Positions 1-8,583 of a stretch of DNA of 8,583 bases are shown piece after piece. Position 1 is the first letter of the stretch, and each line of letters begins with the position of its first letter. The DNA comes from a virus. Its lineage: Duplodnaviria; Heunggongvirae; Uroviricota; Caudoviricetes. The stretch is taken from the IMG/VR virus record IMGVR_UViG_2663762939_000005; one strand, 5' to 3'. Position numbers and translations under genes: made by a program. A model generated the notes under the pieces. The model was not told the origin of the DNA and searched no databases. It worked only from the letters and a program-made list of their open reading frames with translations.

Positions 1-322
1 TTTTCCAGAGGCGGTCGAACTCCGCCTTCGCAAAATAAGCGGAAGCCTGGCGAAGGATATCGTTACTGCGGCGCAGTTCACGATTTTCACGTTCCAGCTC
101 TTTCAGACGCTGACGTTCAGCGGTGGTGAGCCCTCCATCACCGCCCCCGGTATCCCGCTCATGCTGGCGAACCCAGACACGCAGAGTCTCCGGCGTACAG
201 CCAATCTTTGGAGCAATGGAACAAATTGTCGCCCATTGTGAGTCATATTCGCTCTGACTTTCCAGAACCATACGGACTGCCCGTTGACGGACTTCGGGGG
301 AAAAACGAGTATTTTTAGTCAT
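1..322 (-). CDS. IS629 OrfA (transposase N-terminal HTH protein), 3' end truncated by the window edge
   Basis: ATG at 322-320 on the minus strand, preceded by GAGG. Translation reads [107 protein letters not shown] (107 codons in window), an IS3-family OrfA with HTH and leucine-zipper region. Stop codon and orfB lie outside the window. Confidence 0.9.
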
Positions 323-351
323 CCTGTTTACCTCTTTCTCAGGAAGTTTAG

Positions 352-376
352 TCTCCAGGATTCCCGGGGCGGTTCA
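352..376. repeat. IS629 terminal inverted repeat (left IR), outer end at 376
   Basis: 25-nt sequence tctccaggattcccggggcggttca; its reverse complement begins TGAACC as expected for an IS3-family end. The partner IR is outside the window. Confidence 0.75.
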
Positions 377-1567
377 AATCAACAGAATGCGTTACTAAGT
401 TCACAAACTGAATTAACCGTTAAATTAAGTTCCTCTGAACAGGAACTGGTTAAGTGGCGTCAGCAGATTGCCGACCTGGAGTCACGACCGTCATCGAAAT
501 TAACCAAGGATCAGAAATCGCTTCTCTTACACCGGGAAGAAATAACCGCGTTGATGGAGAAAAATGTTGCGATTGAAAAAAATAACAGGCTAATCAAGGA
601 ATCCGCCGAAATAGCTGCATGGCGTGATTCATTGCAGGCTTCGATTGATAATCGTCAACAGGGGTATGATATTCAGATTGCTGGTTATGGGGTTGGCGAT
701 AAAAATCAGCAACGCCAGCAGGAATTACTGCGGATTGAACGTGAATATAACAATCAGCGTCTGCAACTTGAACGTGACTATGCAGATAAATCCCGTGGGA
801 TGTCAAATCATGTTTTTCAGGAGAAAATGCAGGCTCTGAATGATGCTCTGGAACGAGAAAAAGAAATTGTCAGACAGAAAAACGAGCAGCTCGATATTCA
901 GGCAGGAGACTGGGTTAGTGGTGCCTCCCAGGGATTCAATAACTGGCTGGATGACACTAAGGATATCAGTGAGCAGATAAAATCAACCACGACTCAGATG
1001 TTTGATGGAATGACCGATGCGCTGGGTGATTTTGTCACGACAGGCAAAGCAAATTTTCGTTCTTTCGCTACTTCCGTGATTTCGGATCTTAGTCGAATAG
1101 CATTAAAGGCTTCAATTACTGGGATTTTCGACAGCATTAGTAACAGTTCTTCTGGGGGGATTTTAGGAACTATCGGGAGTGCTATTAGTAAATTTATTCC
1201 GAATGCAAAGGGCGGTGTTTATGAGTCTCCGTCATTGAACACGTATTCGAACGGTATTTATGATTCCCCGCAATTTTTTGCTTTTGCAAGAGGGGCTGGT
1301 GTTTTTGGTGAGGCTGGTCCGGAAGCCATTATGCCATTAACACGAACTTCCGATGGTTCTCTTGGTGTCAGAGCTGTTAATAGTAAAAGTGGTAATGGAG
1401 GCGGAGATATTACCTATGCCCCTGTATACCAAATCACTATTCAAAATGACGGCCAGAATGGAGAGATTGGCCCTCAGGCAATAAAAGCACTTATGGGGAT
1501 GGTTGATCAGCGGGTGCAGGGCAATCTGTTAAATATGCGACGTGATGGGGGAATGTTAAGTGGCTAA
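377..1567 (+). pseudogene. H: Tail tape-measure protein (lambda gpH-like), C-terminal ~396 codons; 5' part separated by the IS629 insertion
   Basis: Open frame runs from the IS junction at 377 to TAA at 1565-1567. Coiled-coil-like Q/E/R-rich stretch, then a Gly-rich C-terminal region (FAFARGAGVFGEAGPEAIMPL) typical of lambdoid tape-measure C-termini. Position immediately upstream of M matches lambda order. No plausible native start; the ORF-track start at 284 is a TTG inside the IS. Confidence 0.85.
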
Positions 1568-1898
1568 TACGGAAGAATTTCACTGGTTACCAGAGGATGG
1601 AATGAAAACAGAAAATAAACCATCGATAAAAACTGTAAGATTTGGCGATGGTTATGAGCAACGAAGTCCAAATGGACTTAATCATTCTCTGCGCGTTTTC
1701 ACCTGTGATTTCAAAGTTGAGGCGAATGAACGTGATTCATTTGAAAAATTTTTAGCCCGGCATGAAGGCTATAAATCTTTTTTTTGGCGCCCGCCGGGTA
1801 TTAACAGAAAAATCAGAGTGGTGTGTCGAACGTGGTCAGCGACAGAACATATCACCTATACCGATTTTTCGTGTCAGTTTGACGAAGTGGTGATCTGA
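1560..1898 (+). CDS. M: Minor tail protein M (lambda gpM-like)
   Basis: 112 aa with the conserved VRFGDGY motif and a lambda-M-like C-terminus (FDEVVI). GTG start at 1560 overlaps the H stop; the N-terminus aligns residue-for-residue with remembered lambda M (F-x-W ... RFGDGY). Alternative in-frame ATG at 1602 with AGAGGA upstream. Confidence 0.85.
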   Translation: MANTEEFHWLPEDGMKTENKPSIKTVRFGDGYEQRSPNGLNHSLRVFTCDFKVEANERDSFEKFLARHEGYKSFFWRPPGINRKIRVVCRTWSATEHITYTDFSCQFDEVVI

Positions 1899-2596
1899 TG
1901 CAGGACATACAACAGGAAACGCTGAATGAATGCATTCGTGCGGAGCAGTCGGCCAGCGTGGTGCTCTGGGAAATCGACCTGACCGAGGTAGGCGGGGATC
2001 GCTACTTTTTCTGTAATGAGCAGAACGAAAAAGGTGAGTCTGTCACCTGGCAGAGTCGGCAGTATCAGGCCTATCCCATTCAGGGGAGTGGATTTGAGAT
2101 GAACGGCAAGGGCAGTGCTGCCCGTCCGACACTGGCGGTCTCTAACCTGCACGGCATGATCACCGGGATGGCGGAAGATCTGCAGAGTCTGGTCGGCGGA
2201 ACGGTGGTCCGGCGTAAGGTTTACGCCCGCTTTCTGGATGCGGTGAACTTCGTCAACGGAAACAGCGAAGCCGATCCGGAGCAGGAGGTGATCAGCCGCT
2301 GGCGCATCGAGCAGTGCAGCGAACTGAGCGCGGTCAGTGCCTCTTTTGTACTGTCCACGCCGACTGAAACGGATGGCGCTGTTTTTCCGGGACGTATCAT
2401 GCTGGCCAACACCTGCACCTGGACCTATCGCGGCGATGAGTGCGGTTATAGCGGTCCGGCGGTCGCGGATGAATATGACCAGCCGACGTCCGATATCACG
2501 AAGGATAAATGCAGCAAATGCCTGAGTGGCTGTAAGTTTCGCAATAATGTCGGCAACTTTGGCAGCTTCCTTTCCATTAACAAACTTTCGCAGTAA
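1898..2596 (+). CDS. L: Minor tail protein L (lambda gpL-like)
   Basis: 232 aa, begins MQDIQQETLNEC and ends FLSINKLSQ, near-identical to remembered lambda L, with the C-terminal Cys cluster (CSKCLSGCKF). ATG overlaps the M stop in a TGATG arrangement as in lambda. Confidence 0.93.
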   Translation: MQDIQQETLNECIRAEQSASVVLWEIDLTEVGGDRYFFCNEQNEKGESVTWQSRQYQAYPIQGSGFEMNGKGSAARPTLAVSNLHGMITGMAEDLQSLVGGTVVRRKVYARFLDAVNFVNGNSEADPEQEVISRWRIEQCSELSAVSASFVLSTPTETDGAVFPGRIMLANTCTWTYRGDECGYSGPAVADEYDQPTSDITKDKCSKCLSGCKFRNNVGNFGSFLSINKLSQ

Positions 2597-2601
2597 ATCC
2601 C

Positions 2602-3345
2602 ATGACAGAGACAGAATCAGCGATTCTGGCGCACGCCCGGCGATGTGCGCCAGCGGAGTCGTGCGGCTTCGTGGTGAGAACGCCGGAGGAGGAAAGATAT
2701 TTTCCCTGCGTGAATATCTCCGGTGAGCCGGAGGAGTATTTCCGGATGTCGCCGGAGGACTGGCTGAGTGCAGAAATGCAGGGAGAGATTGTGGCGCTGG
2801 TCCACAGCCACCCCGGTGGTCTGCCCTGGCTGAGTGAGGCCGACCGGCGGCTGCAGGTACAGAGTGATTTGCCGTGGTGGCTGGTCTGCCGGGGGGCGAT
2901 TCATAAATTCCGCTGTGTGCCGCATCTCACCGGGCGGCGCTTTGAGCACGGGGTAACGGACTGTTACACGCTGTTCCGGGACGCTTACCATCTGGCGGGA
3001 ATTGAGATGCCGGATTTTCATCGCGGGGATGACTGGTGGCGTAACGGTCAGAATCTCTATCTGGATAATCTGGAGGCCACAGGGCTGTATCAGGTGCCGT
3101 TGTCAGCGGCGCAGCCGGGCGATGTGCTGCTGTGCTGTTTTGGTTCATCGGTGCCGAATCATGCCGCCATTTACTGTGGTGACAGCGAGCTGCTGCACCA
3201 TATTCCTGAACAACTGAGCAAACGAGAGAGGTACACCGACAAATGGCAGCGACGCACACACTCCCTCTGGCGTCACCGGGCATGGCACGCATCTGCCTTT
3301 ACGGGGATTTACAACGATTTGGCCGCCGCATCGACCTTCGAGTGA
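2602..3345 (+). CDS. K: Tail tip assembly protein K (JAB/MPN metalloprotease-like N-terminal domain plus NlpC/P60-like C-terminal domain)
   Basis: 247-aa ORF starting 6 nt after the L stop. Contains HSHPGGLPWLSEAD (H-x-H-x7-S-x2-D JAMM-like motif) with a candidate upstream Glu in APAESCG, and a candidate Cys/His set (TDCYTL, NHAAIY, LLHHIP). The classical lambda annotation corresponds to the internal ATG at 2746 (GAGGAG RBS at 2731-2736), but the JAB-like domain extends upstream of it, so the 2602 start is preferred. Confidence 0.82.
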   Translation: MTETESAILAHARRCAPAESCGFVVRTPEEERYFPCVNISGEPEEYFRMSPEDWLSAEMQGEIVALVHSHPGGLPWLSEADRRLQVQSDLPWWLVCRGAIHKFRCVPHLTGRRFEHGVTDCYTLFRDAYHLAGIEMPDFHRGDDWWRNGQNLYLDNLEATGLYQVPLSAAQPGDVLLCCFGSSVPNHAAIYCGDSELLHHIPEQLSKRERYTDKWQRRTHSLWRHRAWHASAFTGIYNDLAAASTFE

Positions 3346-3884
3346 AAACGGGGTCCGAAGCCATCCGGGCGCTGGCCATGCAGATCCCGGCATTTCGTCA
3401 GAAACTGAGCGACGGCTGGTACCAGGTACGCATTGCCGGGCGTGATGCAGGTGAAACCGAATTGTCTGCCCGTCTTAATGAGCCGCTGGAAAATGGTGCC
3501 GTGATCCATATCGTGCCGCGTCTGGCAGGAGCCAAAAGTGGCGGTGTGTTTCAGGCTGTGCTGGGGGCGGCTGTTATGGCGGTTGCTATATGGATGCCGG
3601 GGGTAGGAATTATGGCGAGTAATCTGCTGTTTTCTCTCGGTGCCAGTATGACGCTTGGCGGTGTTGCACAGATGCTGGCCCCTAAACCCAAAACCCCCCG
3701 CACACAGACAACGGATAACGGCAAACAGAACACCTATTTTTCTTCACTGGATAACATGGTTGCCCAGGGCAATGTTCTGCCGGTTCTGTACGGTGAAATG
3801 CGCGTGGGGTCACGCGTGGTTTCTCAGGAGATCAGCACGGCAGACGAAGGGGATGGTGGTCAGGTTGTGGTGATTGGTCGCTGA
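3243..3884 (+). CDS. I: Tail assembly protein I (lambda gpI-like)
   Basis: 213 aa, begins MAATHTLPLASPGMARICLYGDLQRFGRRIDLRV and ends GDGGQVVVIGR, matching remembered lambda I. Start overlaps the 3' end of K by 103 nt in another frame, as in lambda. GAGAGAGG upstream. Confidence 0.9.
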   Translation: MAATHTLPLASPGMARICLYGDLQRFGRRIDLRVKTGSEAIRALAMQIPAFRQKLSDGWYQVRIAGRDAGETELSARLNEPLENGAVIHIVPRLAGAKSGGVFQAVLGAAVMAVAIWMPGVGIMASNLLFSLGASMTLGGVAQMLAPKPKTPRTQTTDNGKQNTYFSSLDNMVAQGNVLPVLYGEMRVGSRVVSQEISTADEGDGGQVVVIGR

Positions 3885-3944: not shown

Positions 3945-6900
3945 ATGGGTAAAGGCAGCAGTAAGGGGCATACCCCGCGCGAAGCGAAGGACAACCTGAA
4001 GTCCACGCAGCTGCTGAGTGTGATCGATGCCATCAGCGAAGGGCCGGTTGAAGGTCCGGTGGATGGATTAAAAAGCGTGCTGCTGAACAGTACGCCGGTG
4101 CTGGACAGTGAGGGGAATACCAATATATCCGGCGTCACGGTGGTGTTCCGGGCCGGTGAGCAGGAGCAGACACCGCCGGAGGGATTTGAATCCTCCGGCT
4201 CCGAGACGGTGCTGGGTACGGAAGTGAAGTACGACACGCCGATTACCCGGACCATCACGTCGGCAAACATCGACCGTCTGCGCTTTACCTTCGGTGTGCA
4301 GGCACTGGTGGAAACCACCTCAAAGGGGGACCGGAATCCGTCGGAAGTCCGCCTGCTGGTTCAGATACAGCGTAATGGTGGCTGGGTGACGGAAAAAGAC
4401 ATCACCATTAAAGGCAAAACCACCTCACAGTATCTGGCCTCGGTGGTGGTGGGTGACCTGCCGCCGCGTCCGTTCAATATCCGGATGCGCAGGATGACGC
4501 CGGACAGCACCACAGACCAGCTGCAGAACAAAACGCTCTGGTCGTCATACACCGAAATCATCGATGTGAAACAGTGCTACCCGAACACGGCACTGGTCGG
4601 CGTACAGGTGGATTCGGAGCAGTTCGGCAGCCAGCAGGTGAGCCGTAATTATCATCTGCGCGGGCGTATTCTGCAGGTGCCGTCGAACTATAACCCGCAG
4701 ACTCGGCAATACAGCGGTATCTGGGACGGAACGTTTAAGCCAGCATACAGCAATAACATGGCCTGGTGTCTGTGGGATATGCTGACCCATCCACGCTACG
4801 GCATGGGGAAACGTCTTGGTGCGGCGGATGTGGACAAATGGGCGCTGTATGTCATCGGCCAGTACTGCGACCAGTCAGTGCCGGACGGCTTTGGCGGCAC
4901 GGAGCCGCGCATCACCTGTAATGCGTACCTGACCACACAGCGCAAGGCGTGGGATGTGCTCAGTGATTTCTGCTCGGCGATGCGCTGTATGCCGGTATGG
5001 AACGGGCAGACGCTGACGTTCGTGCAGGACCGACCGTCGGATAAGGTGTGGACCTATAACCGCAGTAATGTGGTGATGCCGGATGATGGCGCGCCGTTCC
5101 GCTACAGCTTCAGCGCCCTGAAGGACCGCCATAATGCCGTTGAGGTGAACTGGATTGACCCGGATAACGGCTGGGAGACGGCGACAGAGCTTGTTGAAGA
5201 TACGCAGGCCATTGCCCGTTACGGTCGTAACGTCACGAAGATGGATGCCTTTGGCTGTACCAGCCGGGGGCAGGCACACCGCGCCGGGCTGTGGCTGATT
5301 AAAACGGAGCTGCTGGAAACGCAGACCGTGGACTTCAGCGTGGGCGCAGAAGGGCTTCGCCATGTACCGGGCGATGTCATTGAAATCTGTGATGATGACT
5401 ATGCGGGTATCAGCATCGGCGGGCGCGTGCTGGCGGTGAACAGCCAGACGCGGACGCTGACGCTCGACCGTGAAATCACGCTGCCATCCTCCGGCATCAC
5501 GCTGATAAGCCTGGTTGACGGACAGGGGAATCCGGTCAGCGTGGAGGTTCAGTCCGTCACCGACGGCGTGAAGGTAAAAGTGAGCCGTGTTCCTGGCGGT
5601 GTTGCTGAATACAGCGTATGGGGGCTGAAGCTGCCGACGCTGCGCCAGCGACTGTTCCGCTGCGTGAGTATCCGTGAGAACGACGACGGCACGTATGCCA
5701 TCACCGCCGTGCAGCATGTGCCGGAGAAAGAGGCCATCGTGGATAACGGGGCGCACTTTGACGGCGACCAGAGCGGCACGGTGAATGGTGTCACGCCGCC
5801 AGCGGTGCAGCACCTGACCGCCGAAGTCACCGCAGACAGCGGGGAATATCAGGTGCTGGCGCGATGGGACACGCCGAAGGTGGTGAAGGGCGTGAGCTTT
5901 ATGCTTCGTCTGACCGTGGCAGCGGATGACGGCAGTGAGCGGCTGGTCAGCACGGCCAGGACGACGGAAACCACATACCGCTTCACGCAACTGGCGCTGG
6001 GAAACTACAGGCTGACAGTCCGGGCGGCAAATGCCTGGGGGCAGCAGGGCGATCCGGCATCGGTATCGTTCCGGATTGCCGCACCGGCAGCGCCGTCGCG
6101 GATTGAGCTGACGCCGGGCTATTTTCAGATAACCGCCACGCCGTATCTTGCCGTTTATGATCCGACGGTACAGTTTGAGTTCTGGTTCTCGGAAAAGCGG
6201 ATTGCGGATATCAGGCAGGTTGAAACCACAGCCCGCTATCTTGGCACGGCGCTGTACTGGATAGCTGCCAGTATCAATATCAAGCCGGGCCATGATTATT
6301 ATTTTTACATCCGCAGTGTGAACACCGTTGGCAAATCGGCATTCGTGGAGGCTGTTGGCCAGCCGAGTGATGATGCATCCGGCTATCTGGATTTTTTCAA
6401 AGGCGAGATAGGGAAAAGCCATCTGGCTCAGGAGCTGTGGACGCAGATTGATAACGGTCAGCTTGCGCCTGACCTGGCGGAAATCAGAACGTCCATCACG
6501 GATGTCAGTAATGAAATCACGCAGACCGTCAATAAGAAACTGGAAGACCAGAGTGCAGCGATCCAGCAGATACAGAAGGTTCAGGTTGATACAAATAATA
6601 ACCTGAACAGCATGTGGGCTGTGAAGCTGCAGCAGATGCAGGACGGACGCCTTTATATCGCGGGTATTGGTGCCGGTATTGAAAACACCCCTGACGGCAT
6701 GCAGAGTCAGGTGCTGCTGGCGGCAGACAGGATTGCGATGATTAATCCTGCGAATGGCAACACAAAGCCGATGTTTGTTGGGCAGGGCGATCAGATATTC
6801 ATGAACGAAGTGTTCCTGAAATATCTGACGGCTCCCACCATTACCAGCGGCGGTAATCCTCCGGCATTTTCCCTGACACCGGACGGGCGGCTGACGGCGA

Positions 6901-7424
6901 AAAATGCCGATATCAGCGGTAACGTGAATGCGAACTCCGGGACGCTCAACAACGTCACGATTAACGAGAACTGCCGGGTTCTGGGAAAACTGTCCGCGAA
7001 CCAGATTGAAGGCGATCTCGTTAAAACAGTGGGCAAAGCTTTCCCCCGGGACTCCCGTGCACCGGAACGGTGGCCATCAGGGACCATTACCGTCAGGATT
7101 TATGACGATCAGCCGTTTGACCGGCAGATTGTTATTCCGGCGGTGGCATTCAGCGGCGCTAAACATGAGAGAGAGCATACTGATATTTACTCCTCATGCC
7201 GTCTGATAGTGCGGAAAAACGGTGCTGAAATTTATAACCGTACCGCGCTGGATAATACGCTGATTTACAGTGGCGTTATTGATATGCCTGCCGGTCACGG
7301 TCACATGACGCTGGAGTTTTCGGTGTCAGCATGGCTGGTAAATGACTGGTATCCCACAGCAAGTATCAGCGATTTGCTGGTTGTGGTGATGAAGAAAGCC
7401 ACCGCAGGCATCAGTATCAGCTGA
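3945..7424 (+). CDS. J: Central tail fibre / host-specificity protein J (lambda gpJ-like), 1159 aa
   Basis: Begins [34 protein letters not shown] and follows remembered lambda J for most of its length. GGAG RBS 8 nt upstream of the ATG. Stop TGA at 7422-7424. Confidence 0.95.
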
Positions 7425-7491: not shown

Positions 7492-8091
7492 ATGCGTAAA
7501 TTATGTGCTGTTATTCTGTCCGCAGTAGTCTGGCTGGTTGCTGCTGGTACGCCAGCGAGCGCAGCAGAGCATCAGTCCACACTAAGCGCCGGGTATCTTC
7601 AGACCCATACTGATATGCCCGGCAACGATGACCTGAAGGGCATTAACGTGAAATACCGTTATGAATTTACGGACACGCTGGGGCTGGTGACGTCATTCAG
7701 TTATGCCAATGCCAAAGATGAGCAAAAAACGCATTACAGCGATACCCGCTGGCATGAAGATTCAGTGCGTAACCGCTGGTTCAGCATGATGGCGGGGCCG
7801 TCTGTACGCGTGAATGAATGGTTCAGTGCTTATGCGATGGCAGGTGTGGCTTACAGCCGTGTTTCAACGTTCTCCGGGGATTATCTCCGCGTAACTGACA
7901 GCAAGGGGAAAACGCACGATGTGCTGACTGGAAGTGATGACGGTCGCCACAGCAACACGTCTCTGGCGTGGGGGGCTGGCGTGCAGTTTAACCCGACCGA
8001 ATCCGTGGCCATTGATATTGCTTATGAAGGCTCCGGCAGTGGTGACTGGCGCACTGACGGTTTCATCGTGGGTGTCGGTTATAAATTCTGA
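7492..8091 (+). CDS. lom: Lom-like outer membrane protein (Ail/Lom/PagC family beta-barrel)
   Basis: 199 aa with an N-terminal signal peptide (hydrophobic core, ASA-AEH cleavage-like site), alternating aromatic/hydrophilic beta-strand pattern, and a C-terminus AYEGSGSGDWRTDGFIVGVGYKF matching remembered lambda Lom, ending in Phe. GAGAGG RBS at 7481-7486. Position just after J as in lambda. Confidence 0.9.
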   Translation: MRKLCAVILSAVVWLVAAGTPASAAEHQSTLSAGYLQTHTDMPGNDDLKGINVKYRYEFTDTLGLVTSFSYANAKDEQKTHYSDTRWHEDSVRNRWFSMMAGPSVRVNEWFSAYAMAGVAYSRVSTFSGDYLRVTDSKGKTHDVLTGSDDGRHSNTSLAWGAGVQFNPTESVAIDIAYEGSGSGDWRTDGFIVGVGYKF

Positions 8092-8146: not shown

Positions 8147-8156
8147 GCACAGAAAA

Positions 8157-8175
8157 CCCCCAGCTAGGCTGGGGG
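8157..8175 (+). promoter_or_regulatory. IS200 left-end perfect palindrome (8-bp stem cccccagc/gctggggg, loop tag)
   Basis: Read directly. Matches the subterminal left-end hairpin that IS200/IS605 elements carry for TnpA recognition, reported for IS200 to block read-through transcription. Confidence 0.55.
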
Positions 8176-8212
8176 TTCCGGAAAGCTTTCAGCTTTAAGC
8201 CAGTTATTAAAA

Positions 8213-8281
8213 CCCCTTTTGATTTGTTAAAACACCTTGCGGTCTGGCAACTGCAAGTGTCAAACAAGAAATCAAAAGGGG
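8213..8281 (+). promoter_or_regulatory. IS200 tnpA leader stem-loop sequestering the ribosome-binding site
   Basis: 8213-8224 (ccccttttgatt) pairs perfectly with 8270-8281 (aatcaaaagggg), which contains the AAGGGG Shine-Dalgarno 7 nt before the ATG. Further inner pairing: acaccttgc (8232-8240) with gcaagtgt (8253-8260). Confidence 0.6.
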
Positions 8282-8287
8282 GTCCCA

Positions 8288-8583
8288 ATGGGGAACGAAA
8301 AGAGCTTAGCGCACACCCGATGGAACTGTAAATATCACATAGTTTTTGCGCCAAAATACCGAAGACAGGTGTTCTACAGAGAGAAGCGTAGAGCAATAGG
8401 CAGTATTTTGAGAAAGCTGTGTGAGTGGAAAAGTGTACGGATTCTGGAAGCTGAATGCTGTGCAGATCATATCCATATGCTTGTGGAGATCCCGCCCAAA
8501 ATGAGCGTATCCGGCTTTATGGGATATCTGAAAGGGAAAAGCAGTCTGATGCTTTACGAGCAGTTTGGTGATTTGAAATTCAA
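8288..8583 (+). CDS. tnpA: IS200-type transposase TnpA (Y1 HUH transposase), N-terminal 98 codons; continues beyond the window end
   Basis: Translation MGNEKSLAHTRWNCKYHIVFAPKYRRQVFYREKRRAIGSILRKLCEWKSVRILEAECCADHIHMLVEIPPKMSVSGFMGYLKGKSSLMLYEQFGDLKF contains the HUH motif (HIHML) and closely matches remembered IS200 TnpA. Confidence 0.9.
   Translation, partial: MGNEKSLAHTRWNCKYHIVFAPKYRRQVFYREKRRAIGSILRKLCEWKSVRILEAECCADHIHMLVEIPPKMSVSGFMGYLKGKSSLMLYEQFGDLKF

Follow-up and report, generated by a model that had tools for sequence, protein, structure and literature searches.

Does an insertion sequence split the tape measure gene of this prophage and, if so, what became of the DNA at the break and of the tail that the gene should help to build? 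The question arises at the left end of an 8,583-nt stretch of Caudoviricetes DNA (IMG/VR record IMGVR_UViG_2663762939_000005; this whole stretch is hereafter called the window), where a piece of an insertion sequence (IS) directly adjoins coding sequence of a tail length tape measure protein (TMP). An earlier note on this DNA had proposed an IS629-type element lodged in the tape measure gene of a tail-defective prophage. Our analysis argues strongly for an insertion combined with a small IS-associated deletion in the TMP gene of a Rac-type lambdoid prophage, which very probably makes no tails.

The features on which the argument rests are listed below with their coordinates in the window and their strand; the last one lies outside the window.

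1-376, minus strand: left-end 376 bp of a 1310-bp IS629 element (IS3 family), the remainder lying past the window's left edge, in a scaffold gap
2-322, minus strand: IS629 orfA, 107 of 108 codons (Pfam HTH_Tnp_1, E 7e-13)
352-376, minus strand: IS629 left terminal inverted repeat, 25 bp, with 23 of 25 first positions matching the opposite IS end
377-380, plus strand: AATC, right-hand copy of a 4-bp direct repeat, equivalent to nt 2044-2047 of the intact TMP gene
377-1567, plus strand: 3' part of the TMP gene, 396 codons and a stop, no start codon (Pfam TMP_4, E 2e-19; Tape_meas_lam_C, E 8e-27)
1560-1898, plus strand: minor tail protein M homologue, intact (Pfam Phage_min_tail, E 1e-31), with 0 amino acid differences from that of the relative Z1002
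1898-2596, plus strand: minor tail protein L homologue, intact (Pfam Phage_tail_L, E 1.5e-97)
2602-3345, plus strand: tail protein K homologue with JAB and NlpC/P60 domains, intact (Pfam Prok-JAB, NLPC_P60)
3282-3884, plus strand: tail assembly protein I homologue, intact (Pfam Lambda_tail_I)
3945-7424, plus strand: tail tip attachment protein J homologue, intact, 1159 aa (six GpJ-specific Pfam domains and a sub-threshold fn3 match)
7492-8091, plus strand: Lom/Ail outer-membrane protein gene, intact (Pfam Ail_Lom, E 9e-127)
L010 2409-3739 (about 4.8 kb upstream of IS629 and 5.7 kb left of window base 1): IS2, 1331 bp, 100% identical to K-12 IS2A

The IS629 element and the edges of the window

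Two E. coli assemblies contain the window letter for letter: GCA_001032735.1 (scaffold KQ088931.1, locus L003) and GCA_964050845.1 (loci L005 and L010; the window spans 6057-14639 of L005), the latter being a gap-free 4.6-Mb contig. In KQ088931.1, N runs bound the window on both sides. Its left edge is an assembly gap within IS629 and no biological boundary: L003 5144-6056 is an N run inside the element, and window base 1 falls on the orfA/orfB slippery site (…CTGGAAAA, minus strand). The right edge is another scaffold gap.

An element whose interior is an N run, in a window that begins at the gap, could owe its place in the TMP gene to a scaffolding error at a repeated sequence. However, gap-free L005 contains the complete IS and both junctions, identical to the window. 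An independent assembly, GCA_014143265.1 (L006), has the same structure, with 3 differences from L005 across 23.5 kb, and GCA_030200675.1 (L014) also carries the junction, which is thus present in four assemblies. We therefore consider an assembly artefact extremely unlikely. The exact junction of the window was absent from the 5,426 complete E. coli genomes searched; three complete-genome records that span the whole 1-1567 query join the IS to the TMP gene at different positions. A J protein identical to that of the window is encoded on five public contigs.

ISfinder-style naming of an element calls for at least about 90-95% identity to a reference. The complete copy in L005 (5123-6432, 1310 bp) is 99.5% identical over 1310 of 1310 bp to the element deposited in LC567824.1 as "insertion sequence: IS3 family IS629" with OrfA and OrfB, and many plasmid-borne IS629 copies are 100% identical to the window's element. 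Window positions 352-376 are the reverse complement of the IS629 left inverted repeat (TGAACCGCCCCGGGAATCCTGGAGA...). The termini (TGAACCGCCCCGGG...) form imperfect 25-bp repeats (TGAACC...GGTTCA; 23 of the first 25 positions agree), as in an element of about 1.3 kb with 5'-TG...CA-3' ends. In addition, the L005 copy has the two-ORF organization of the IS3 family, in which an HTH-containing orfA and an orfB with the DDE rve domain are linked by a -1 frameshift: orfA encodes 108 aa (HTH_Tnp_1), orfB 296 aa (rve, rve_3, HTH_21), and the two overlap by 4 nt. The window itself holds orfA only, whose final codon, stop and frameshift site lie at or past the window edge. The frameshift pseudoknot is mostly past that edge as well, and an Rfam scan of the window gave no match in 1-1567, its sole match being the IS200-associated STnc490 at 8155-8278. 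For an identical IS629 in strain MS 196-1, PGAP gives an intact transposase made by programmed frameshift and marks an AL1L pseudoknot. IS629 is common in E. coli; the copy in the TMP gene is full-length and apparently active, in an orientation antisense to the phage late genes. The assignment to an IS629-type element of about 1.3 kb, made earlier from its 376-bp end, is borne out by the full-length copy.

The two parts of the tape measure gene

Base 377 is a codon boundary of the TMP frame. From there, the plus strand reads NQQNALLSS... (NQQNALLSSQTEL...) up to the stop at 1565-1567; the open frame extends back to a TTG at 284, but 284-376 is IS sequence. The earlier reading that the terminal repeat ends at 376 and that TMP sequence resumes at 377 without a start codon is therefore correct, given the inverted repeat at 352-376 and the TMP domains found from 377 onwards. 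The 3' part differs by 1 amino acid from the intact 1077-aa TMP of Z1002 (L008). The 28 bp starting at 377 are 100% identical in 648 of 5,426 complete E. coli genomes, and the segment 377-1567 shows 99.9-100% identity in the best-matching records.

The 5' part lies on the far side of the element, as had been predicted. Extending the window leftwards in L005 reaches the other IS629 end, where TMP codons 1-649 abut the element and share the frame of the 3' part (Pfam TMP_2, E 5e-81; 1 amino acid difference from the 1077-aa allele). The intact allele matches PHROG phrog_24, "tail length tape measure protein", with 1105 bits. Both its domains and its position, between tube/chaperone genes and the M-L-K-I-J series, are those of a lambda H-type tape measure gene. 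In L005, tube, terminator, neck and head genes stand upstream of the TMP gene; tail fibre genes and then chromosomal sitABCD follow lom. The reading frame is, however, broken: codons 1-649 run on for 53 codons into IS629 before a stop, codons 683-1077 follow beyond the element, and 33 codons are absent. No consensus promoter that could express the C-terminal fragment was found on the plus strand near 300-560, around the IS/TMP junction, and the interval between the capsid gene and sitABCD, where the prophage ends on the right, holds no second TMP gene.

These flanks also bear on a more drastic history, in which a large IS-mediated deletion or rearrangement would have left DNA other than TMP sequence to the left of the IS. 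Such an event did happen in the near-identical prophage of MS 196-1 (L001), where TMP nt 1390 is fused through an identical IS629 to a replication gene resembling ydaU; a large deletion has occurred there, and the target is not duplicated. In the assemblies that contain the window, by contrast, TMP codons 1-649 stand on the left, preceded by tube, terminator and head genes. For the window's lineage this history has practically no chance of being correct, and L005, L006 and L003 rule it out.

A separate observation concerns the metagenome scaffold ERZ28617504 (L012, 1340-4554), in which the TMP is called as two ORFs (730 and 337 aa) with no IS between them. This split may reflect a nonsense or frameshift mutation, or a sequencing error.

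The AATC repeats and the history of the junction

In L005, the flanks of IS629 read ...AATAATC on the left and AATCAACAG on the right (at greater length, ...GAATATAATAATC and AATCAACAGAATG...). TMP sequence breaks off at nt 1948 on the left of the element and resumes at nt 2044 on its right. The intact gene has AATC at both places, at nt 1945-1948 and 2044-2047, 99 bp apart. The 95 bp between the AATC copies are absent in the window's lineage, giving a net loss of 99 bp or 33 codons, in frame; the residues lost are LIAQINERYKGPKQPKAKGYSDDAAQRMIDHLN. The 95 bp are present in the intact alleles of Z1002 and of L007, the closest IS-free relative found, which has an identical J and DNA about 99.9% identical over the shared part.

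A target duplication of 3-4 bp had been expected in the earlier note. AATC does stand on both flanks of the IS, but in the intact alleles seen the two copies are separate sites 99 bp apart. In O157, target duplications of IS629 are of 3-4 bp and prophages hold 62% of the IS629 copies (PMC3271280). Flanking repeats of this kind are what a real insertion leaves, since other IS629 copies in the loci compared show clean 3-bp duplications (GAT, ACC). The repeat may be a true duplication followed by a deletion, or it may consist of two different target copies.

With the IS identified, both junctions read, the 95 bp seen to be missing and no deletion junction in the IS-free alleles searched, the history that we favour is as follows. 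IS629 would have inserted at either AATC (TMP nt 1945-1948 or 2044-2047), duplicating 4 bp. A later event, either a deletion next to the IS or recombination involving a pair of neighbouring IS629 copies, would then have removed the 99 bp that separate the repeats. As the gene stands, TMP codons 683-1077 lack a start codon, codons 1-649 run on into 53 IS codons and 33 codons are gone. Deletions adjacent to IS elements are documented for IEE-dependent IS excision (PMC9943667). This order and mechanism of the two steps is the most likely one, and insertion followed by loss is the most economical account because the 99-bp loss is seen only together with the IS.

An alternative route would be a simple one-step insertion of IS629, with a genuine AATC duplication, into a TMP allele that was already shorter by 99 bp (33 codons) in frame. 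AATC at both IS ends is what a simple insertion would leave. If the IS and one AATC are taken out, the remaining 3135 nt form an open frame whose only stop is at the end, the loss being in frame as a functional short allele would require, and TMP length variants are found in phages generally. The IS-free junction of such an allele would read ...GAATATAATAATCAACAGAATG... (as a 30-mer, GAATATAATAATCAACAGAATGCGTTAC). A 46-nt probe for it was matched contiguously in none of the 5,426 complete E. coli genomes, 648 of which carry the segment and match the right half only. The corresponding 38-nt exact pattern was absent from JGI metagenome contigs (0) and GTDB representative genomes (0), whereas the long-allele pattern, used as a positive control, was found in 42 metagenome contigs. 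The closest IS-free relative, L007, also carries the long allele. We rate this route as unlikely, because the IS would need to have landed exactly on the 4-bp junction of the earlier deletion.

For insertion followed by loss, the progenitors would carry IS629 at one AATC site only. Their junctions would read GATCATCTGAATCTGAACCGCCCCGGG on the left of a site-2-only insertion and CCCGGGGCGGTTCAAATCTTATCGCTC on the right of a site-1-only insertion, and neither kind of progenitor junction was found in complete E. coli genomes.

The same TMP gene has been disrupted independently elsewhere, by IS elements in L001, L002 and L063 and by a deletion from TMP to lom in K-12 (L061). In WP7-S18-ESBL-09 (L002), IS629 sits at TMP nt 2011-2013 in the same orientation, with a clean 3-bp GAT duplication; the site falls inside the 95 bp missing in the window's lineage, and the IS629 variant differs at 21 nt. 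In FDAARGOS_1249 (L063), the gene has accumulated ISKpn26, IS629 and a member of the IS5 family. Together, four independent IS events are seen in this TMP gene, including two same-orientation IS629 insertions within one 99-bp stretch. That the Rac-type TMP gene is a recurrent, possibly selected or preferred, target of IS inactivation is a doubtful proposition at present. If it held, the window's junction could have arisen by recombination between two IS629 copies inserted close together, and the region could be an IS629 hot spot, or selection could favour tail-less prophages that keep lom and the tail fibres.

State of the prophage and comparison with known systems

In phage lambda, gpH is needed to initiate and gauge the polymerization of the tail tube. 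By analogy with gpH, the prophage should make no tails, because its TMP would have to start and gauge tube polymerization. A second inactivating lesion supports a defective prophage: 81 nt ahead of its stop, the head-closure gene (Hc1, phrog_161) of the same prophage is interrupted by the IS2 element, which has a 5-bp CAAGG duplication at its ends. If the IS2 and IS629 lesions are set aside, the late genes from capsid to tail fibres are present, and the genes from M to lom are intact. The term "cryptic remnant", applied earlier to the downstream tail genes and lom, is thus too strong for this stretch. The IS629 event is probably recent, since M, L, K, I and lom are open and 0-2 amino acids from their Z1002 counterparts.

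The same conservation relative to IS-free Z1002, with the downstream tail genes intact, would be expected if the prophage were still tail-proficient, through excision of IS629 or through a compatible TMP supplied by another prophage. Moreover, the gene would be in frame after excision, and IEE-promoted excision of IS629 is documented (PMC9943667). Yet even a precise excision would leave 33 codons missing, the head-closure gene is truncated by IS2, and the interrupted TMP gene is the only one in the late region. As for a TMP from elsewhere, such a protein generally fits the tube and tip proteins that belong with it. Tail proficiency by either route is very unlikely, and a tail-less prophage remains our reading.

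J stands out among the tail genes, with 35 amino acid differences from Z1002 against 0-2 in the neighbouring genes. In L004 (CP164275.1), a J 100% identical to that of the window follows a tail module of another kind, which is lambda-like and has gpU/V/G/T homologues and a TMP of 853 aa. This arrangement suggests that prophages of different types have exchanged the tail-tip module. Inside J, a 515-aa antisense ORF (window 4875-6422, minus strand) is probably a by-product of codon composition. At the right end, IS200C sits immediately behind the lom terminator; its left part fills window positions 8148-8583, with STnc490 at 8155-8278 scoring 146 bits and tnpA (Y1_Tnp) starting at 8288 and running off the window. 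This IS200C is present in Z1002 and absent from L007.

By the sequence and flanks of its relatives, the prophage is probably Rac-type, the source genome itself being seen on the right side, up to sitABCD. The ydaY-ynaA segment of K-12 Rac is 98.5% identical to the intact relative Z1002, whose prophage has sitABCD-uspF-ompN after it; the right-hand neighbours of K-12 Rac are likewise uspF-ompN. On the left, the near-identical MS 196-1 prophage adjoins the flanking gene ttcA and has int-xisR-recET-kilR-sieB. The earlier note had likened the split gene to IS629 insertions in prophages of enterohaemorrhagic E. coli and Shigella; nothing found here shows an EHEC or Shigella host, and the closest relatives retrieved are mostly human isolates, one of them from blood.

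This is ordinary prophage decay, in which a familiar IS has entered a familiar kind of target in genomes that are public, and the main value of the case is for annotation; an IS629-split TMP gene raises no new biological question. A literature search for IS629 together with tape measure found no related paper. The ORFs at 284-1567 (427 aa) and 554-1567 (337 aa, a gene-caller prediction) are pseudogene fragments and no separate tail protein, and the prophage should be scored as defective. It offers a small example of stepwise decay: the TMP gene has taken up IS629 and lost 95 bp, the head-closure gene carries IS2, and IS200C has entered behind lom, while the tail-tip genes and the lom moron are intact. 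In extent of decay it falls halfway between a Rac-type phage that is still intact and K-12 Rac with its extensive deletions.

Compared with phage lambda, the TMP shares the Pfam domains TMP_2 and Tape_meas_lam_C with gpH and likewise stands directly upstream of M-L-K-I-J-lom, in the lambda order. However, the TMP of the intact relative is 1077 aa long against 853 aa for gpH, and the upstream head, tube and connector genes are not lambda-like (P22-type capsid family, Phage_tube_2, YdaY). The element resembles IS629 (isoforms IS1203 and IS3411) of O157:H7 and Shigella prophages in length, repeats, ORFs and prophage location. Unlike those cases, its host prophage is Rac-type, and its flanks are 95 bp apart in intact alleles, which speaks against a simple insertion. 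WP7-S18-ESBL-09, MS 196-1 and FDAARGOS_1249 have the same TMP gene hit by IS629 in the same orientation as in the window, whose junction is found in none of them. The cryptic prophage Rac of K-12, with its ynaA TMP remnant and lomR, is like the window's lineage in that the TMP is destroyed while lom and the tail fibre genes are kept. In K-12, however, a deletion that begins near TMP nt 935 reaches into lom, and IS5 interrupts lomR, whereas the window's lineage retains the stretch from capsid to tail fibres, with a TMP gene that is only interrupted, by IS629, and has lost 99 bp.
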